Shown here: one piece after another, positions 18,287 to 59,353 of the stretch
Position numbering within the stretch: position 1 is the first letter of the stretch
Layout: each line of letters opens with the position of its first letter
Assembly: GCA_016195085.1 (NCBI GenBank)
Contig: JACQAG010000071.1
Span: 63,093-127,092 of the forward strand
Source of the DNA: Pseudomonadota bacterium
GTDB lineage: Bacteria; Pseudomonadota; Alphaproteobacteria; SHVZ01
Reading direction: 5' to 3'
Length of the DNA: 64,000 bases
Notes under the pieces: generated by a model
Database searches by the model: none
Told to the model about the DNA's origin: nothing
Seen by the model: only the letters and a program-made list of their open reading frames with translations
Made by a program: the position numbers and the translations under genes

Positions 18287-19102
18287 ATGGCGGTAGCAGT
18301 ACAATCCGCGCAATCGCGCCAAGAGCTCGAGCAAGCGCTGGTCAAGCGGGCCGAGGCCGAGTTCGAGAAGATGATCGGCGATGCGGCAAACGGCAATCCC
18401 GATGCCGTCGAGCGCAAATCCAACCGTGTGGCCGAGATCGCCAAGGACAAGGCGTTCCCGATGGCGCGGCGAAAGGAGTTCCAGGACCGCTGCAAGCTCT
18501 TGCTGCGGCAAGCCTACGAGATGAGCGTGAATCTCTTTCTCGACGACGCCAATGGTGCCGTCAGGGCGGGCGACGAGGAGCGCAAGAACAAGCTCATCAC
18601 CAAGGCCAAGGAGCACTACTCCATGGCGCTGCGCGCCGGCGCTGATGAGGACTTCAAGCTCGCGGTCAAGCGCAAGCTGGAGATGATCGGCATGACCAGC
18701 CCCGCCGGCACCAGCGAGAAGGCGAAGAAGGCGGCTGAGGACGAGGCGGCGAAGCCGCAGCCCGTCTCCAAGGCTCCGAACGGGGTCGAGCGCCGACGCG
18801 CCATCCGCTACAACGATCCGCTGGTCACCGCGACCATCGCCGGCACCAGCTACAAGACGGTGAACTGGTCGATCCGCGGCCTCTTGATCGAGGCCTATCA
18901 GGGTCCGCTGGCGGTCGGCGACAAGGTCACCATCGGCGTCTCTTGGGAAGGCAGCAAGGAGGCGGGGCTGTCGCCGGCGCGCGTCGTACGCCGGGACGCG
19001 GAAGCCGGCCTGATCGCCGTCGAGTTCAACGGCATCGACGGCAACATGCTGCGTTTGGCCCACGCCATGCGCCTGCAGGAGATCGCACCCTCGCCGGAAT
19101 GA
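18287..19102 (+). CDS. PilZ-domain protein with N-terminal Lys/Glu-rich helical domain
   Basis: C-terminal PilZ signatures RRRAIRYN (RxxxR) and NWSIRGLLIE (D/NxSxxG); GAGGTAG SD before the ATG. Confidence 0.65.
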   Translation: MAVAVQSAQSRQELEQALVKRAEAEFEKMIGDAANGNPDAVERKSNRVAEIAKDKAFPMARRKEFQDRCKLLLRQAYEMSVNLFLDDANGAVRAGDEERKNKLITKAKEHYSMALRAGADEDFKLAVKRKLEMIGMTSPAGTSEKAKKAAEDEAAKPQPVSKAPNGVERRRAIRYNDPLVTATIAGTSYKTVNWSIRGLLIEAYQGPLAVGDKVTIGVSWEGSKEAGLSPARVVRRDAEAGLIAVEFNGIDGNMLRLAHAMRLQEIAPSPE

Positions 19103-29029: not shown

Positions 29030-30016
29030 CTACAGCAGGTCGCGCAGCATGGCGATGAGAGGTTGATCGGCCGGAGGCATCGGATACTGGGATAGCCGCG
29101 CCGGCCGGACCCAGGTCAATTCCTGGCCCTCGCGGGCGGTGACGATGCCGCGCCAGCGCCGGCAGACGAAGAGCGGCATCAAGAGATGGAAGTCGACATA
29201 GCGATGCGAGGCGAACGCGATCGGCGCCAGGCAGCTCTCGGAGGTATCGATGCCCAGCTCTTCGGCCAGCTCGCGCACCAAGGCAGACTCCGGGGTCTCG
29301 CCTGCATGCACCTTGCCGCCCGGGAACTCCCAGAGACCGGCCATCGCCTTTCCGGGCGGGCGTCTTGCCAGGAGCACGCGGCCATCGGCGTCGACCAGTG
29401 CGGCAGCGCTCACCAGCACCACCGGCAGCTCCACGGGCGCTGACCGACGCGCCGGATCGCAGCCGGCATGCTCGAGGTGATAGAGCGCGACCGGGGCCGA
29501 CAGGCCGCGCGCCGGGAATTCGTGCACCGCCTCGCCGACGAGCCGGAAGCCGCAGCCGATGAGCACCTTGGCCGAGCGGACGTTCTCGGTGTGCACGGTG
29601 GCGGTCAGACGCTCGAGATTGAGCTCTTCGGCGGCGAAGGCAGCGACCGCCTGCACGGCTTCGCTGGCGAAGCCTTGGCCCCAATAGGCACGGCCGAGCC
29701 AGTAGCCGATCTCGCCGGCATCGGGTCCGGCGACGATGAGGCTGATCCCGCCGATCAGCGCCATGTCCTCGCGCTTGAGCAGCACGAGATCGAGCTCGCC
29801 GGTGAGCGTGAGCGGCCGGGACGCCTCGGCGATCCAAGAGCGGGCCGCGTCGGTATCGTAGGGATGCGGCATGCGCGCGGTGTAGCGCGTCACCTCGGCG
29901 TCGGCCGCGAGCGGGGCGATCGCCTCCGCATCGGCCGGTTCTGGACGACGCAGCACGAGGCGCTGAGTGGCGAGCGGCAGTCTCCGCTCGATGGCGTCAG
30001 CTGCGGTAGCTGCCAT
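29030..30016 (-). CDS. Fusion protein: N-terminal GNAT acetyltransferase (RimJ/RimL-like) plus C-terminal Nudix hydrolase (MutT-like)
   Basis: GNAT region ([17 protein letters not shown]...GFRLVGE). Nudix box [24 protein letters not shown]. Overlaps the argJ 3' end by 20 bp. Confidence 0.7.
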
Positions 30017-31226
30017 TGATGTCGACGTAGCGGTGGGTCAAGTCGCAGGTCCATACCGTAGCCTTGCCCTTGCCGACGCCGAGATCGACCTCGATCAGGA
30101 TCTCGCGGCCCTGCATGTGGCGGGCGACCGGCGCCTCGTCGTAGCCCTCGACCCGGGCCCCGTTCGCGGCGACGGCGACGCCGCCGATGCGGATCGCCAG
30201 GCGGTCGCGCTCGGCCTTCTCTCCGGCCTTGCCGACCGCCATGACGATGCGGCCCCAATTGGCGTCGCCCGCCGCGACCGCCGTCTTCACCAAGGGCGAG
30301 TTGCCGATCGCCAGCCCGACGCGCCGTGCGGCGCGCTCCGAGGCGGCCCCGGTGATCCGGATCTCCACCAGCCGCTCCGCCCCTTCGCCGTCGCGCACGA
30401 CCTGGAGGGCGAGATCGCGCATGACCTCGTGGAGCGCCTTGCGGAAGGGAGCGAGCCGGCGGTCGCCGGCATTCTCGATCGGCGCATGGCCGGCCTGCCC
30501 GGTCGCGAACAGGAGCAGGGTGTCGCTGGTCGAGGTGTCGCTGTCGACGGTGATCGAGTTGAAGGTCTTCGGCGTGCCCTCCGACAAGAGCTTCTGCAGG
30601 ATCGGTTGCGCGATGCGGGCGTCGGTGAAGATGAAGCTCAGCATCGTCGCCATGTCGGGCTGGATCATGCCGGAGCCCTTGGCGATGCCGTTGATGGTGA
30701 CCGGCATGCCGTCGATCTTGACCGTCCGGGTCGAGCCCTTGGGATAGGTGTCCGTGGTCATGATGGCGCCGGCCGCCTTCGGCCAGGCGTCGCCGACAAG
30801 GCTCGCCTTGAGCTCGGCCAGCTTGGCGATGATGCGGTCATCGGGCAGCGTCTCGCCGATGACGCCGGTGGAGGCGACGTAGATCTCATCGCCGGCGCAG
30901 CCGAACAGCGCCGCCGCCGCCGCCGCCGAACGCTGGACCCCGTCGCGCCCCGCGGCACCGGTGAAGGCGTTGGCGTTGCCGGCGTTGACGACGAGCACGC
31001 GGGCGCGGCCATGCGCCAGCGCTTGGCGGCACCATTCGACCGGTGCCGAGGCGGTGAGCGAGCGGGTCAACACGCCCGCAGCACCAGTCCCCGCCGCCAG
31101 CGACACCAGCAAGAGATCGATGCGGTCCTGGTAGCGGATACCGGCGGCGCAGGCGGCGATGGCGACGCCGGCGATCGGCGGCAGATCGGGAAAGCGCAGG
31201 GGCGCCAGCGGCGAGATTTGGGTCAT
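29997..31226 (-). CDS. argJ: Bifunctional glutamate N-acetyltransferase / amino-acid acetyltransferase ArgJ
   Basis: Start taken at [10 protein letters not shown]; ArgJ hallmarks [11 protein letters not shown] (autoproteolytic Thr site) and C-terminal VDINGSYRS. Confidence 0.85.
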
Positions 31227-31291
31227 GGAGCGAACCGGCTTCAGGAGGCGATCGTGATGGTGGACGAGGAGGGGCGGCGGCTCCGCCGCTT

Positions 31292-32200
31292 TTATTCGGT
31301 GCGCGGCGTGCCGTCCAGGTTGAAGCGCTCGAGCTTGGCGCCGTCGCGAAGCTGCTTCACCACGTCGGTGATGATCTGCTGCGAGAGCTCGCTGGTCAGC
31401 TCCTCGCGCGCCTCCTCGAAGCTGGGCGGCTGCGAGCGGCGCTTGTCCTCGACCCGGATCACGTGCCAACCGAAGCTGCTCTTCACCGGCTGCTCGCTGG
31501 TCTGTCCCTTGGCGAGCTTGAAGGCCACCTCGGAGAATTCCGGCACCATCTGATCCTTGGTGAAATAGCCCAAATCGCCGCCGCCGGTCTTGGCGCTGGG
31601 ATCGATCGACTTCTTCCGCGCCACCTCGGCGAAATCCGCGCCATTCTTGAGCTCGGCGATGACCGCCTTCGCCTCATCCTCGCTCTGCAACAGGATATGG
31701 CGGGCGCTCACCTCCTCCTGGCCGGGATTGTCGGCCACGAATTTGGCATAGCGCTGCTTCAGCTTGTCGTCGGTGACCTGCTTCTGCACCTCCTTGGTGA
31801 GGTAGGACTCCTGGATCAGCCGATCCTCGAAGTTGACCAGCCGATGCTTGAGCTGCGGGTCATCCTGGAGCTTGAGGGTCCGCCCGGCAGCCGCGATCAG
31901 CTTGAGGTCGACCAGGCGATCCACCAGGAGCGGATAGAGCACGTCCTTCGGCATCTGCTGGTATTGCTGGGGCAGCTGCTGGGCGGCGCCGGCGAGATCG
32001 GAGCGGTAGATCGGATCGCCGTTCACCTTGGCCACGACCGGATCGGCGTCCGGCTTGCCGACTTGGCTCTGCGCGCCGGCGAATCCGCCGGGGGGTGCGG
32101 CGGGGGCTTGGGCGCCGGCTGGGGAGGCGGAGCCGAGAGCGATCAGGGCGACGGCGGCGAGCGCCAGGGCGAAGCGGACGAGGCCGGCGGAGCGGGGCAT
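31292..32200 (-). CDS. Parvulin-type peptidyl-prolyl cis-trans isomerase (SurA/PrsA-like, periplasmic)
   Basis: Signal peptide [31 protein letters not shown]; rotamase domain SARHILL...GGDLGYF...FGWHVIRV. Start at 32200, with GAGGA upstream. Confidence 0.75.
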
Positions 32201-32351
32201 CACGGAAATCACATCCTCGATTGGCGGAAAAAAAGACAAGCGCGGCACCCCAGGGAGCGCCCGCGCGTCTCCGCTAATCATAGCCCACGATCCAGCCCCG
32301 ACAAGCGGCAAGCCGCTCGCCCGTGCAATCCTGCTCAGAATCCGCCCGGGC

Positions 32352-33152
32352 TCAGACCGTCACGTTGACCGGATTGCCGCCGGCCACCAGGGAGAGCCCG
32401 CCGCTCGAGGGCAGCGGCACGGCCAGATCGAAGCTGAGTCCGGTCACCGCACCGGCGCCAAGCCAGCTCTGGCTGCCATCGGCACCGGTCAGGCTGAGCC
32501 CGAGGCCGTTGTCCGAGGAAGCCGCGGCAACGTCCGAGAAGCTGCCCACCGACACCGTGGCATCGAGGCTGGTGCCGAGCTCGGCAAAGCGGGCCTGCAA
32601 TTGCCCGCCATCGGCGCTCACCTTCAGGTTCTCTTGCGCGGCCTTGACCGCGACCTTGGCTTCGCCGAAATGCGCCTCGCCGCCGGCGCTGCCCGCCCCG
32701 CCGCCGCTGGCCTTGAGCGAGACCTCTTGGACCTTGAGCTGGAACTTGCCGCCGGCGCCGGCAAACTCCACCGAGACGCCTTTGAAAGCCAGCGTCAGCC
32801 GCGCCTCTTGGGAGGCCGATCCGGCCAGCACGTGCGCTCCTGCCTCAGTCTTGGCGATCTCAGTCACCTGGTCGGCGACGGCGTGGGCCACGCTCGGTTC
32901 GAGCCCGATGGCGCGGACCACGTCATAGACGGAGTCGCGGGCCAGGCCCAGGCCGCGGGCGAAGGCCGCCCAGGCCGCGACCTCGAGGCTGCTATTGCCC
33001 GCGTTGGTTTCATGCACGCTGGTTGCGATGTGATTGTCCGGCGGGTGATGGGTCGGCCTGAGATGCAAATCCCCGGACTCGGCGAATGCCAGCCGACTCT
33101 GAACCAGAAGATTGCCATTGGCGTCGGAGGACGCCGGGAATGATGGCAACAT
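32352..33152 (-). CDS. Hypothetical protein (no recognisable domain; Gly/Ala/Ser/Val-rich)
   Basis: Strong SD AAGGAGG 7 nt before the ATG at 33152. Third-codon-position GC bias typical of genuine genes in this genome. No signal peptide. Confidence 0.55.
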   Translation of the reverse strand: MLPSFPASSDANGNLLVQSRLAFAESGDLHLRPTHHPPDNHIATSVHETNAGNSSLEVAAWAAFARGLGLARDSVYDVVRAIGLEPSVAHAVADQVTEIAKTEAGAHVLAGSASQEARLTLAFKGVSVEFAGAGGKFQLKVQEVSLKASGGGAGSAGGEAHFGEAKVAVKAAQENLKVSADGGQLQARFAELGTSLDATVSVGSFSDVAAASSDNGLGLSLTGADGSQSWLGAGAVTGLSFDLAVPLPSSGGLSLVAGGNPVNVTV

Positions 33153-33494
33153 GACAGACCTCCTTCTGAGGTTTGGTGTGCCAAAAACATCTAACCCAAT
33201 GACCTAGCTCGGCATTTTGCCGCGCGCCGGCATTGGCTGGGCCATAGGCCCAAGGCGCATGGACACCATGCACTAGTAGAATATTAATGCAGGCGCGGTT
33301 CTTATTCAAGATGCCACCCGCATGGGCCGAAAACCGGCCGTCGCGGCCGGCCCTTCGCGGCCGCCGGGCCCTCGACGGCCTCGGGGCAGTCTCGTTGACA
33401 GCCCCGGCCGCTCCACCTATCTCTCAAGCGTTCCGCGCGGATCGAAAGGCCCGGCGGCCTTCGTTCCAGTGATCCATACCCCCCGAGGCCACTC

Positions 33495-36212
33495 ATGTTC
33501 GGCGCCTTCGCCCGAAGCCTGTTCGGCAGTGCAAACGACCGCATCCTCAAACCTCTGCGCAAGGAGGTGGCGGCCATCAACGCGCTCGAGCCCGAGCTGG
33601 TGACGCTGAGCGACGACGAGCTCAAGGCGCGCACCGAGTGGCTGAAGGCTCGTTGCGCCGCCGGGGAGAGCCTGGACGAGCTTCTGGTCGACGCCTTCGC
33701 CACCGTGCGCGAAGCCGCCAAGCGCACCTTGGGCCAGCGCCATTTCGACGTGCAGCTCCTGGGCGGCATGATCTTGCACAAGGGCCGCATCGCCGAGATG
33801 AAGACCGGCGAAGGCAAGACCCTGGTGGCGACGCTCCCGGTCTATCTGAACGCGCTTGCCGGCAAGGGCGTCCACGTCGTCACCGTCAACGACTATCTCG
33901 CCCGCCGCGATGCCGAATGGATGGGCCAGATCTACAAGTTCCTGGGCCTCACCGTCGGCGTCATCGTGCACGGCATCGACGATCCCGAGCGCCAGGCCGC
34001 CTATCGCTCGGATGTGACCTACGGCACCAACAGCGAGATGGGCTTCGACTATCTCCGCGACAACATGAAGTTCCGCCTGGAGGACATGTGCCAGCGCGAG
34101 TTCTTCTTCGCCATCGTCGATGAGGTCGACTCCATCCTCATCGACGAGGCGCGCACGCCGCTCATCATCTCCGGGCGCACCGAGGATTCCTCCGAGTCCT
34201 ATCGCCGCGTCGACCGGCTGATGTCGAAGCTCGTACGCGACGACTATGAGATGGACGAGAAGCACCGCACCGCCACCTTGACCGAGGCGGGCGTGGAGAA
34301 GTTCGAGACTCTGCTGCGCGAGGCCGGCCTGTTGAATGAGGGTACGCTCTACGATCTGACCAACGTCTCGCTGGTGCATCACCTCAACCAGGCGCTGCGC
34401 GCCAACACCCTCTACCTCAAGGACCGGGACTACATCGTCAAGGACGACAAGGTGGTGCTCATCGACGAGTTCACCGGCCGCATGATGGAGGGCCGCCGCC
34501 TGTCGGAGGGCCTGCACCAGGCGATCGAGGCCAAGGAGAACGTCGAGGTGCAGAGCGAGAACCAGACGCTCGCCTCGATCACCTATCAGAACTATTTCCG
34601 CATGTATCCGAAGCTGGCCGGCATGACCGGCACGGCGATGACCGAGGCCGGCGAGTTCAGCGAGATCTACAAGCTGGACGTGGTCGAGATCCCGACCAAC
34701 ATGCCGATGATCCGCGCCGACAAGGACGACGAGGTCTATCGCACCCAGCGCGAGAAGGTGGACGCGATCGTGGCGCTCATCGAGGAGGCGCGCACCCGCA
34801 TGCAGCCGGTCCTGGTCGGCACGGTGTCGATCGAGAAGTCCGAGGCGCTGTCGGAAGTCCTGAAGGGGCGCAAGATCCCGCACCAGGTTCTGAACGCCCG
34901 CTATCACGAGCAGGAAGCCTATATCGTCGCGCAAGCCGGCCGGTCGGGCGCCGTCACCATCGCCACCAACATGGCCGGCCGCGGCACCGACATCCAGCTC
35001 GGCGGCAACTTCGACATGCGCGTGCGCCAGGAGCTGGCCGGCGTCGAAGATCCCGAGCTCAAGCAGCGCGGCATCGAGCGCATCAAACGCGAGATCGAGG
35101 CGGCGCGCGAGGTGGTGCGCCAGGCCGGCGGCCTGTACATCATCGGCACCGAGCGCCACGAGAGCCGGCGCATCGACAATCAGCTCCGCGGCCGGTCGGG
35201 CCGCCAGGGCGATCCGGGCGCCTCCAAGTTCTTCCTGTCGCTCGAAGACGACCTCATGCGCATCTTCGGCTCCGACCGCATCGACGGCATGCTGCAGAAG
35301 CTCGGCATGAAGGAAGGCGAGGCGATCGTCCATAGCTGGATCAACAAGGCGCTCCTGAAGGCGCAGCAGAAGGTCGAGGCGCGCAACTTCGAGATCCGCA
35401 AGCAGCTTCTGCGCTTCGACGACGTCATGAACGAGCAGCGCAAGGTCATCTACGAGCAGCGCCGCGAGGTCATGCGCGCGAGCGACGTCGCCGAGATGAT
35501 CGAGGGCATGCGCGAGCAGACCATCGACGATCTGATCCGGCGCTGCATTCCCGCCAACGCCTATGCCGAGAAGTGGGACGTGCATGGACTGCACACGGAG
35601 GTGCTCCGCATCTTCAACCTCGATCTGACGGTCGCCGACTGGGCGAAGGAGGAGGGCATCGCCGACGAGGCGATCCGGCACCGCCTGACCGACGCGGTCA
35701 ACCGCAAGATGGCGGAAAAGGCGGCGAACTACGGGCCGGAGCTGATGCGCTATGCGGAGAAGAGCCTGCTCCTGCAGATCCTGGATACGACCTGGAAGGA
35801 GCACCTCTTGGCGCTCGACCATCTGCGCCAGGGCATTTCGCTCAGGGCCTATGCGCAGCGCGACCCCTTGAACGAGTACAAGAGCGAGGCTTTTGTTCTG
35901 TTCGAGGAGCTGCTGTCGCGGCTGCGCGATCAGGTGACGATGACTTTGGCGCACCTCGAGCTCCGCTTCCGCGGGCCGGAGCCCGAGCCGGCGCCCTCCT
36001 CGGAGCTGGTGAGCGAGCCGGCCGGTGCGGGAGAGGGCGGGGCGCGGGGCGAACGCAGCCAGCGCTTGCGGCCGCGCGCCGTCGGCATGGCCGTCGACGC
36101 CGCCGATCCCACCACCTGGGGCAAGGTCGCGCGCAACGCGCCCTGTCCCTGCGGCTCGGGCAAGAAATACAAGCAGTGCCACGGCAAGCTGGGTGCCACG
36201 GCGGCGAACTAA
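33495..36212 (+). CDS. secA: Preprotein translocase ATPase SecA
   Basis: Walker [14 protein letters not shown]-like motor motifs, C-terminal zinc-binding [14 protein letters not shown]; 905 aa. Confidence 0.95.
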
Positions 36213-57808: not shown

Positions 57809-59353
57809 TCACGCGCGCCGGCGCGCCTGCCAGGCGGCGGCGCCGAACTCGCGCATGTTGAGCGGGCCCGGGGCCGAGTCGCCCGAGGTGCCGAGCAGCA
57901 CCTCGCCAGCCATGGCCGCACCCTCGATCATGCCCGAGAAGGCATAGGAGAGGTTGCTGCCCTCATAGGGATGCAGGCTGGTGAAGGCGACCCGGTTTCC
58001 CTCGATCGTGCCGGCGAGCGCTCCCGTGAGGCCGAGGGTCCGATGCGTGCCGGCGAGCCGCAGTCCGCTTTGCGTGAGCTCGAGGCGATGGATGCTGCGC
58101 GCGGCGGCAAACGCGATCTCGACCTCCCAATTCCCCGACACATCGCCAGCCGGTGCGGTCGGCGCCGCGGCTGCGACCGGCGGTGCCGCCGCCAGGGCAG
58201 CGGCGATGGCGCGGCCGACGATCGCGGCCTCGCCGGGAGCGAGATTGAACGGCAGGATGAAGACCGATCCCTCGGTGGCGCCGCGATCGTCCAGCATGAT
58301 GCGCGGCTCACCCGCCAGCAGCGTCTCGCGCAATTCGAGGCCACCGAGACCGATGCGGCAGCGGTCCCAAGCGATCCGGAGGCGCGGCACCTCTTCATGC
58401 GCCTTGGATGAGCCGAGCGTCTCGACGCTGACGCCGGCGACCGCGGTCACCAAAGCCGCGATCTGGTCGAGGTCGTCCTGCCAGCGCTTCCGCTCCGCCC
58501 CATGGTCGCGCGCCTCGGCCCAGAACTCGATCGCGGCCACCAGCCCCACGATCTCTTCCTTGCTCACCTTCATCGGCCGACCGATGGCGTGGTGCGGGGC
58601 GGCATTGAGACGGGCTGCCTCGATCCAGGATCGCTCTCCCAAGAGCAGGCCGGTCGATTGCGGCCCGCGCAGATATTTGCCGCCGCTATAGGCGACCATG
58701 GTGGCGCCGCGCACGAGATAGGGGTTCGGCCGCTGGAGATGCTCGGAGGCGGCATCGAGGAGGATGGGAATTCCCTTGGGCGCGGCGAGCGCTGCGCACT
58801 CTTCGAGACCGATCGGCAGCGCACCGTCCTTGGTGCCGATGGTGGCGATGAGCACGGCATCGCTAGCCAAGGCCACCTGCATCTGGGCGCGGTCGGCGAC
58901 CTCGAGGATCTCGGCGCCGGTGGCGCGGATGGCATGGTCGTAGGTGAAGCGCGCACCCTTGGGCATCACCACCCGGTGCGGCATTCCCTCGGTCCTGGGC
59001 AAGCGCAGCATGCGTTCGGGATCGCCTTTGGTGATCGCACCCGCGGCGGCTGCCGTCAGCGATGCCGCCCCGCCGCTGGTGACCAGCGCCGCCTCCGCAC
59101 CCGTGAGGAGCGCGATGCGCCGTCCGGCGGCGACCATCAGTTCCGTCAGGTTGACGAACGATCCCGCGGCATGAGTGATCGCATCGACGACTGCCGGCAG
59201 CATCAGGCTGCCGCCGTGGACCGTGCGCGAGCCGCAGCAATTGATGAACGGTCGTACTCCCAGCCGGGTGTAGGGGTCGCCCGATCGCTCGGCCGTGCTG
59301 CCGGTGGCGTCGTTTCCTCCGCTCAAGGTGCCGCGCTCCTGTCGTTCGAGCAT
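57809..59353 (-). CDS. SelA-like / DgaE-like PLP-dependent enzyme with ~130-aa C-terminal extension
   Basis: N-terminal 370 aa resemble the L-seryl-tRNA(Sec) selenium transferase-related family (RPFINCCGSRTVHGGS...AYSGGKYLRGPQSTG). Followed by an Ala/Pro linker and an extra domain. Confidence 0.7.
   Translation of the reverse strand: MLERQERGTLSGGNDATGSTAERSGDPYTRLGVRPFINCCGSRTVHGGSLMLPAVVDAITHAAGSFVNLTELMVAAGRRIALLTGAEAALVTSGGAASLTAAAAGAITKGDPERMLRLPRTEGMPHRVVMPKGARFTYDHAIRATGAEILEVADRAQMQVALASDAVLIATIGTKDGALPIGLEECAALAAPKGIPILLDAASEHLQRPNPYLVRGATMVAYSGGKYLRGPQSTGLLLGERSWIEAARLNAAPHHAIGRPMKVSKEEIVGLVAAIEFWAEARDHGAERKRWQDDLDQIAALVTAVAGVSVETLGSSKAHEEVPRLRIAWDRCRIGLGGLELRETLLAGEPRIMLDDRGATEGSVFILPFNLAPGEAAIVGRAIAAALAAAPPVAAAAPTAPAGDVSGNWEVEIAFAAARSIHRLELTQSGLRLAGTHRTLGLTGALAGTIEGNRVAFTSLHPYEGSNLSYAFSGMIEGAAMAGEVLLGTSGDSAPGPLNMREFGAAAWQARRRA

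Follow-up and report, generated by a model that had tools for sequence, protein, structure and literature searches.

The stretch analysed here (the window) comprises 64,000 nucleotides of contig JACQAG010000071.1 (positions 63,093 to 127,092, assembly GCA_016195085.1) from a Pseudomonadota bacterium of the Alphaproteobacteria. Its subject is an open reading frame (ORF) for a 266-residue protein, located between secA and a gene for a PpiC/SurA-type rotamase, a peptidyl-prolyl isomerase (PPIase), with argJ beyond the latter. The coding sequence is located as follows:

32352..33152, minus strand: coding sequence of the 266-residue protein, stop codon included (from the ORF list, the sequence, the GC content by codon position and the homologues).

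An original prediction from the letters of the window had described the product as an orphan protein. No annotated homologue was found and the gene is taxon-restricted, so that part of the claim stands, but a strict orphan was refuted by the recovery of ~35 sequence clusters. The sequence comparisons described below show that the protein is one member of an undescribed, clade-restricted family, all clusters of which are unannotated and derive from uncultured, Rhodospirillales-like alphaproteobacteria.

The ORF is a genuine protein-coding gene. It starts with ATG and cannot be extended upstream in frame, as it opens at the first start after a stop codon. The GC contents of its first, second and third codon positions (GC1/2/3) are 0.70/0.52/0.83, compared with 0.66/0.39/0.92 in secA, and the coding pattern GC3 > GC1 > GC2 is seen in this frame only. 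A plus-strand ORF of 371 residues (32028..33143), antisense to the gene and reaching into the PPIase gene, has its highest GC content at the first codon position and was therefore dismissed as a shadow ORF. The coding GC pattern, the conservation of start, stop and ribosome-binding site, and the purifying selection described below together establish that the ORF is real. The gene-like codon bias noted in the original prediction was thereby borne out, as were several of its other observations. The AAGGAGG Shine-Dalgarno (SD) sequence was found as AGAAGGAGG, 6 nt before the ATG, and Gly, Ala, Ser and Val make up 51% of the residues. No signal peptide or transmembrane segment was detected, with a maximum KD19 of 1.22 for the protein and 1.57 for the whole family, and a basic N-terminus is absent, the first eight residues containing at most one Lys or Arg in the protein and in the family. 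The product is Cys-free and mildly acidic, with an isoelectric point (pI) of 5.15. It has no recognisable domain, as had been stated: single-sequence searches of Pfam, NCBIfam, PDB sequences, PHROGs and PADLOC returned nothing.

Initial searches for relatives were performed with the single sequence. A word-indexed search of 5.8 billion clustered proteins gave three matches, namely the 266-residue protein itself and one 52%-identical relative in two versions, and six proteins were recovered when 1.84 billion representatives were searched exhaustively with phmmer. These single-sequence relatives, which are 45-52% identical, constitute the window-type subgroup. The identical protein is annotated as hypothetical (HYR63_18445) in a metagenome-assembled genome (MAG; GCA_016178915.1, contig JACOSK010000095.1, labelled 'Proteobacteria bacterium') and is also encoded on three short Logan contigs. 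Peptide patterns from the window-type alignment revealed no relative in 185,579 species genomes, and none of the stretches that such patterns picked out (340 from genome contigs and 600 from metagenome contigs) encodes one. A hidden Markov model of the family, applied to six-frame translations of 80 PPIase-anchored loci, identified a 241-residue ORF in the same slot of L007, the reference locus whose PPIase is nearest to that of the window. Profile searches with the L007 ORF added gave 34-39 matches, all from MAGs or metagenomes, and contributed ~30 clusters of 237-242 residues, unannotated and without a Pfam domain, which form the L007-type subgroup. The two subgroups are ~22% identical (22-29%) and align end to end. 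When their independent alignments were compared, hhalign matched them at a probability of 94.5% (E = 8e-8) over 168 columns that reach the shared C-terminus. Full-length homologues keep both termini of the 266-residue protein. The family products are about 240-266 residues long and Cys-free in 32 of the 34 members, with a pI of 4.45-5.2 in the window-type proteins and of up to 7.0 in the L007-type proteins, which are rich in Arg and Glu. A search of the PDB with the family profile gave chance matches only (E >= 0.49). In one 116-residue sequence (P0007), the N-terminal peptide and some of the beta region are retained, but the whole helical hairpin and the first beta-hairpin are missing and the chain stops early; a deletion variant, a pseudogene and an assembly fragment are all conceivable.

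The gene was found in one and the same slot wherever the flanks could be read (8/8 loci). The order secA on the opposite strand, ORF, rotamase is present in the window (L001) and in L005, L007, L086, L089 and L092, with the flanks in L005 identified as SecA and PPIase fragments. In L091, secA and the ORF are followed by the contig end, and the contig of the member P0005 carries the ORF and the rotamase gene, with a divergent gene upstream. On contigs that are long enough, the rotamase gene is followed by argJ, a GNAT-NUDIX gene, a major facilitator superfamily gene, DUF1800 and DUF1501, and the spacer between the ORF and the PPIase gene measures 48-151 nt across the loci. A reference set of 80 loci was fetched from species-representative genomes by a PPIase anchor. 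In 76 of these, secA is divergent from and adjacent to the PPIase gene, and in 72 of the 76 the gap is at most 600 bp (median 334 bp), too small to hold a gene, compared with 1291 bp in the window. The proposal that the gene interrupts a conserved neighbourhood was thus confirmed, and the suggested check of its presence or absence at the PPIase-secA junction showed it to be fixed in the family, with the slot empty in those 72 others.

The other enlarged gaps hold different insertions, which identifies the region between secA and the PPIase gene as a recurrent site of insertion and rearrangement (L008:3049-5700, L011:4440-5798, L006:1-2800, L021). Two Skermanella species carry a phytase-like gene (PF13449) in the gap, and that of S. 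stibiiresistens holds an additional EF-hand-like gene of 390 residues. The gap extends to 4.9 kb in one MAG of the Acetobacteraceae, and L006 is rearranged, with a 373-residue gene and a pentapeptide-repeat gene in place of secA. The 266-residue gene is the stable occupant, in one clade, of this recurrent insertion site, and its location there is most likely explained by the permissiveness of the site to insertion and not by a functional link. Nothing relevant was found in the literature on the secA/argJ/PPIase junction or on PF26745, a Pfam family discussed below.

Substitution rates were compared with those of the neighbouring genes. Among the L007-type loci (L086/L089/L007 comparisons), the ratio of non-synonymous to synonymous substitutions (dN/dS) of the ORF is 0.18-0.32, compared with 0.24-0.29 for the PPIase gene, 0.16 for secA and 0.13 for argJ. 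Between the window and L005, the ORF has a dN/dS of 0.58 at 47% identity, whereas the partial secA and PPIase genes have ~0.25 at ~80% identity. Between the subgroups, identity is 22-29% for the ORF, compared with 74% for SecA, 69% for ArgJ and 56-59% for the PPIase. These values show that the ORF is functional and under purifying selection within the subgroups, and that it has diverged very fast between them. The gene was shown to be inherited vertically at one fixed site. It had also been put forward as a candidate for horizontal acquisition, and the same data bear on the alternative that it was recently transferred, or that it is a spurious ORF in GC-rich DNA. Such an origin would fit an ORF that breaks an otherwise tight gene pair and has an AT-rich stretch upstream, and long chance ORFs do arise in GC-rich genomes, the 371-residue shadow ORF being an example. 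However, the GC content and the codon-position pattern of the gene are native, its borders are devoid of direct repeats, tRNA genes and mobile-element genes, and tblastn searches of 72,556 plasmids and 50,697 phage records gave no relative even at E <= 1. Horizontal acquisition is unsupported because of this native composition, the absence of an insertion scar and the absence of plasmid or phage relatives. Moreover, lineages with as little as 74% identity between their SecA proteins carry orthologues in this slot, and purifying selection and the conservation of start, stop and ribosome-binding site speak against both versions. A recent transfer or a spurious ORF is considered extremely improbable and is effectively refuted, while the other half of the earlier suggestion, a taxon-restricted gene, was upheld by the confinement of the homologues to uncultured alphaproteobacteria.

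The gene invites comparison with taxon-restricted orphan genes. It resembles them in having homologues in a narrow clade only, no recognisable domain, fast evolution (22-29% identity against 74% for SecA), a composition biased towards Ala, Gly, Ser and Val, and an intergenic site that is empty in relatives. Unlike singletons, the family has ~35 clusters, is under purifying selection and has a partly predictable folded core, and it differs further by its unusually well-conserved termini and ribosome-binding site. The protein can be divided into the following segments:

33102..33152, minus strand: residues 1-17, a conserved N-terminal peptide (from the alignments; MLPLF.APFDANG.VLV in window-type and MLLPV... 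in L007-type proteins).

33003..33101, minus strand: residues 18-50, a poorly conserved linker rich in Pro, Ser and His, variable in length and sequence and predicted to be disordered (predicted local distance difference test, pLDDT, 39-40 over residues 21-50).

32826..33002, minus strand: residues 51-109, a predicted two-helix hairpin (AlphaFold2 with 34 sequences; helices 51-81 and 86-109, pLDDT 72-86).

32706..32798, minus strand: residues 119-149, a predicted long beta-hairpin, RLTLAFKGVSVEFAG / GKFQLKVQEVSLKAS (AlphaFold2 strands 119-132 and 135-149, pLDDT 53-70).

32355..32432, minus strand: residues 241-266, a conserved C-terminal segment, FDLAVPL...PVNVTV, with a fixed end position (from the alignments).

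The N-terminal peptide begins with ML(L/P/A)P in 33 of the 34 members, the exception being P0006, an N-terminally truncated fragment. The helical hairpin contains the near-invariant Trp61 within a block A.W..(F/V)AR.LG...G(L/V)....A...A..VA and is the region of the hhalign matches; in the window-type proteins this block reads W.AFAR.LGLAR.SVFDIVRA.GLD and is followed by a beta-rich middle. The end of the C-terminal strand of the family, PV(D/N)V(A/T)(I/V), has the same position in almost all members. The chain closes with DVAI in 26 of the 34, with NVTV in four, and with DLAI, NVAI and DVAA in one each, while P0002 ends in PNPV and looks cut short. Invariant and near-invariant columns consist almost entirely of Gly, Ala, Leu, Val, Trp, Phe or Pro, and include one Arg and one Glu only. 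The fold had been described as unknown, and the structure prediction agrees: the AlphaFold2 model, with a predicted template modelling score (pTM) of 0.38, resolves two hairpins only, and fold searches with it were uninformative.

Repeated beta-strand motifs had also been claimed, and this claim did not hold, since 35% of composition-preserving shuffles score equally. A 23-residue internal repeat, considered on account of 69-nt spacings in the DNA, was rejected for the 266-residue protein on the same comparison (p = 0.35 against shuffles). Significant repeats were found only in two relatives, P0005, in which the beta-hairpin recurs at an offset of 47 (ARLALVFKGVSVSFAAG / ARLSLAVSGETVSVAAG, p about 0.003), and P0008, in which it recurs at an offset of 30 (p about 0.008). 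These suggest that the beta region may have arisen by an old internal duplication that is no longer detectable in the 266-residue protein.

The small share of residues suited to chemistry among the conserved positions, with one Arg and one Glu only, is unlike a catalytic site and argues for a non-enzymatic product. The protein would be a stoichiometric, soluble binding or scaffold protein, a tentative assignment held with a confidence that falls somewhat short of even. In this view, the folded core would consist of the helical hairpin and the beta module, with the two conserved termini as contact or packing elements, and the compartment would be the cytoplasm by default.

A different cytoplasmic role was suggested by the second helix and the beta-hairpin, the module that gives weak matches to PF09650 (PHA_gran_rgn) in relatives of the protein. 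According to this explanation, the family would be remotely related to PF09650 and its members would be located on or near polyhydroxyalkanoate (PHA) granules, in the manner of phasins. Related alphaproteobacteria commonly store polyhydroxybutyrate, which favours it. Sub-threshold matches to PF09650 were obtained for 7 of the 34 members (best E 0.0074), and the four that were inspected cover residues ~104-173 against profile positions 11-66 of 87. However, these four score 12.5-15.5 bits, compared with a gathering threshold of 26.6, the seven matches come from closely related sequences and are not independent, and the 266-residue protein itself gives no match even at E <= 10. PF09650 is counted among four phasin-related Pfam families (PMC5658603; PMC4117528), yet is itself 'mostly uncharacterized', gammaproteobacterial and ~87-90 residues long (PMC4117528), whereas the present family, at 240-266 residues, has additional N- and C-terminal regions. 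None of the genes scanned, whether in the 64-kb window or flanking the ORF in L086, L089 and L092, was recognised as a PHA gene, and the phasin and bactofilin families PF05597, PF09361, PF09602 and PF04519 gave no match at E <= 10 in the 34 members. PF09650 is a lead and not a membership, and a granule-associated role is regarded as quite improbable.

The conserved C-terminus raised the further possibility that the protein is not a cytoplasmic binder or scaffold but is exported. In this case, a type 1 secretion system (T1SS) would read the uncleaved C-terminus, no signal peptide would be required, and the product would have a structural or adhesive role as a small extracellular or surface protein. 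In T1SS-exported proteases and lipases, the chain terminates with an acidic residue and hydrophobic residues after it, a motif that has to form the free terminus (PMC2642768). The D-V-A-I ending of 26 of the 34 members, with DLAI, NVAI or DVAA in three more, resembles this arrangement, as does the fixed position of the protein end across the family. Like T1SS substrates of the serralysin/lipase class, the family members have no N-terminal signal peptide, are Cys-free (32/34), acidic (pI 4.45-5.2 in the window-type proteins) and rich in Gly, Ala, Ser and Val, and have a conserved free C-terminus; large parts of the chain also lack a confident model, which is common among secretion-competent T1SS substrates. 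They differ from that class in that neither GGxGxD repeats nor DxDxDG loops occur in any of the 34 members, and in that the N-terminus is conserved, which is unexpected for a T1SS substrate. The 266-residue protein itself ends in N-V-T-V, with Asn in place of Asp and Thr inside the 'hydrophobic' triplet, and the L007-type proteins reach a pI of 7.0, are less acidic and contain many Arg and Glu residues. A set of ATP-binding cassette (ABC) transporter, membrane fusion protein and outer-membrane factor was not found in the Pfam annotation of the genes scanned across the 64-kb window, which revealed only importer-type and ABC-F-type components. An identity as a repeats-in-toxin (RTX)/T1SS protein was downgraded because of the missing GGxGxD repeats and transporter genes. 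Given also the low base rate of T1SS substrates among proteins of unknown function, export by this route is considered unlikely.

Part of the case for T1SS export came from a possible distant relative in Skermanella that has about three EF-hand-like, Ca-binding loops, no signal peptide by inspection, and the endings DVKV, DVKI or DVRI. The Skermanella EF-hand proteins (PF26745, SPM) share several features with the family. The S. stibiiresistens gene is located in the same slot beside secA and in the same orientation, the window-type profile matches its helix and beta-hairpin region (hhalign 76%, E = 2e-5), and the C-terminus, D-V-(K/R)-(V/I), is like the ends of the family. However, the match falls to 46% with the full-family profile and to 0.6% against the L007-type profile, so that the link is absent for that subgroup. 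DxDxDG loops are present in 16 of 16 Skermanella-type proteins, with a mean of 3.2 each, compared with 0 of 34 family members, and in S. aerolata the EF-hand gene is located elsewhere in the genome. A precomputed Pfam column lists PF26745 for P0028-P0043 and '-' for every window-type and L007-type protein. The link to the Skermanella SPM/EF-hand proteins was left unconfirmed because of this dependence on the profile used.

Outside the coding sequence, the following elements were identified:

33159..33171, minus strand: ribosome-binding block CCTCAGAAGGAGG, 13 nt, separated by a 6-nt spacer from the ATG (from the sequence).

33196..33236, minus strand: hairpin of the 5′ untranslated region (5′-UTR) with an A-rich loop, ..GGCAAAAUGCC.. 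(inverted repeat I1).

33281..33309, minus strand: putative promoter of the ORF, TTGAAT-17-TAATAT (read from the sequence; 8/12, against a scan cutoff of 9, and hence not listed by the scan).

33395..33423, plus strand: promoter-like site of secA, TTGACA-17-TATCTC (read from the sequence).

32277..32304, minus strand: promoter-like site of the PPIase gene, TTGTCG-16-TATGAT, downstream of the ORF stop (promoter scan; one site compared with 0.2 expected).

32228..32264, minus strand: GC-rich hairpin followed by T7, a possible intrinsic terminator (RNA fold of the spacer).

The ribosome-binding block, CCTCA(G/A)AAGGAGG, is kept in all seven loci compared (the window, L005, L007, L086, L089, L091 and L092), being identical in six with a G-to-A change in the seventh, and is thus more strictly conserved than the protein (~22% identity between subgroups). 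Its CCUC can pair with the GAGG of the SD sequence, and RNAalifold predicted a 4-bp stem in which all pairs are invariant, so that it provides no covariation evidence; such a hairpin might occlude the SD sequence and act as a translational switch. The hairpin in the 5′-UTR, ~55 nt upstream of the ATG, has a loop GCA(A/G)AA (GCAAAA.GC) that is conserved in seven loci, while the stem sequences differ, and one covarying stem pair (GC, UG, UA) offers weak evidence for it. An Rfam search of 31000..34000 at E <= 1 gave one chance snoRNA match only.

The intergenic region shared with secA (33153..33494) had been called AT-rich. GC content was found to be low only at ~33000..33300 (0.55-0.565, compared with ~0.68), so that the description applies up to ~33300, whereas 33300..33494 has a GC content of 0.65-0.68. 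In the alignment with the L007-type loci, the AT-rich stretch, inside which the putative ORF promoter is located, appears as an insertion of ~55 nt. It also contains TTAA-N7-CTAG, with TTAA-N7-TTAG at a comparable place in L086 and L089; the CtrA-type box is TTAA-N7-TTAAC, which the motif in the AT-rich stretch resembles only loosely. A block ..GTGACAGATAAGTGGTGC...CTGTCAACGA around the secA promoter-like site is conserved in L007, L086 and L089. Downstream of the ORF, the site TTG(T/C)CG-16/18-(T/C)ATGAT precedes the PPIase gene in all five loci compared (the window, L005, L007, L086 and L089). Because the PPIase gene keeps this promoter-like site of its own, the ORF probably forms a transcription unit by itself. 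In the window, the promoter-like -10 box of the PPIase gene (32282..32277) is closely followed downstream by the GC-rich hairpin with T7, which is absent from L005, L007, L086 and L089 and was not called by the scan (loops of 3-8 nt); it could terminate the ORF transcript or attenuate transcription of the PPIase gene.

This arrangement bears on a proposal that the gene is functionally tied to its neighbours: either it would be a regulatory monitoring ORF, like SecM, MifM or VemP, that controls the PPIase gene, or its product would be a partner or client of one of the two flanking proteins, SecA and the PPIase. The arrest peptides SecM, MifM, VemP and ApdP are encoded by ORFs beside export-machinery genes and on the same strand as the downstream gene, and the ORF is likewise placed: a periplasmic chaperone gene follows it directly on the same strand, at a short distance of 48-151 nt, and secA adjoins it wherever the flanks are readable; it also encodes a conserved C-terminal peptide. 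All known monitoring substrates need an N-terminal signal or transmembrane segment, and the family has neither (maximum KD19 1.57). The ORF differs further from the arrest peptides in that it is divergent from secA, which makes translational coupling impossible, in that a conserved promoter-like site (in the window also the hairpin with T7) separates it from the PPIase gene, and in that its product of 240-266 residues is much longer, has a folded core and is under purifying selection along its whole length, unlike a leader peptide. Its C-terminus shows no known arrest motif, the whole neighbourhood is syntenic, so that adjacency adds no information, and secA and the PPIase gene function without the ORF in 72 of the 76 other loci. 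A functional tie of this kind is very unlikely.

The best explanation of the data as a whole is that the ORF is a genuine, vertically inherited, clade-restricted gene whose product is a non-enzymatic, soluble binding or scaffold protein, and this combined account is given slightly better than even credence. Several points weigh against it. Its functional part is drawn from negative evidence, the homologues being without known function, and with a pTM of 0.38 there is no confident fold, only the helical hairpin and the beta-hairpin being modelled. An exported protein would also be compatible with the conserved free C-terminus and with a composition that lacks Cys, is acidic and has abundant Gly, Ala, Ser and Val. 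The dS of the ORF (0.72, compared with 0.33-0.38 for the neighbours) and its lower GC3 argue against very high expression despite the strong SD sequence, and the synteny of the whole neighbourhood cannot separate functional linkage from vertical inheritance.

In an extended proposal, the family would be a new class of small, RTX-less proteins exported via the free C-terminus PV[D/N]V[A/T][I/V], or a dedicated envelope-biogenesis factor acting with SecA and the periplasmic PPIase, with the invariant SD-occluding hairpin as a translational switch; this combination is rather unlikely. If it were true in either its export or its envelope-factor version, the gene would represent a lineage-specific addition to the protein-export machinery of the clade, and a C-terminal export signal or a 5′-UTR switch would be of more interest for alphaproteobacterial protein secretion. 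For the binder or scaffold gene favoured here, the significance is modest, as the hosts are uncultured and comparable genes are common in MAGs. Nevertheless, an apparent singleton has become a defined family of ~35 clusters in two subgroups, with a fixed slot and conserved termini and ribosome-binding site, which is suitable for deposition as a new domain of unknown function. It also provides a clean example of a lineage-specific gene fixed in the divergent promoter region between two housekeeping genes.

The wider 64-kb window is ordinary core chromosome, with xanthine dehydrogenase-like genes, ABC importers, obg and proB, and no mobile-element or secretion-system genes were detected among the genes scanned across it. 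Two further ORFs in the window, at 57809-59353 (minus strand, 514 residues) and 18287-19102 (plus strand, 271 residues), have coding-like GC3 and no Pfam match at E <= 1e-5. In L005 (JGI contig Ga0255987_10169498, sample 3300023213), a complete 34-nt Illumina TruSeq adapter, GTGACTGGAGTTCAGACGTGTGCTCTTCCGATCT, occupies positions 512-545 in the intergenic region between secA and the ORF, and adapter peptides MTGVQTCALPIF and RSEEHTSELQSP appear in the six-frame translations; the assembly is therefore adapter-joined or chimeric at that point. Downstream of argJ in the window, a gene at 29030-30016 (minus strand) encodes a fusion of a GNAT acetyltransferase with a NUDIX (MutT-like) domain and overlaps the argJ stop by 20 nt; this fusion is conserved in L086, L089 and L092.

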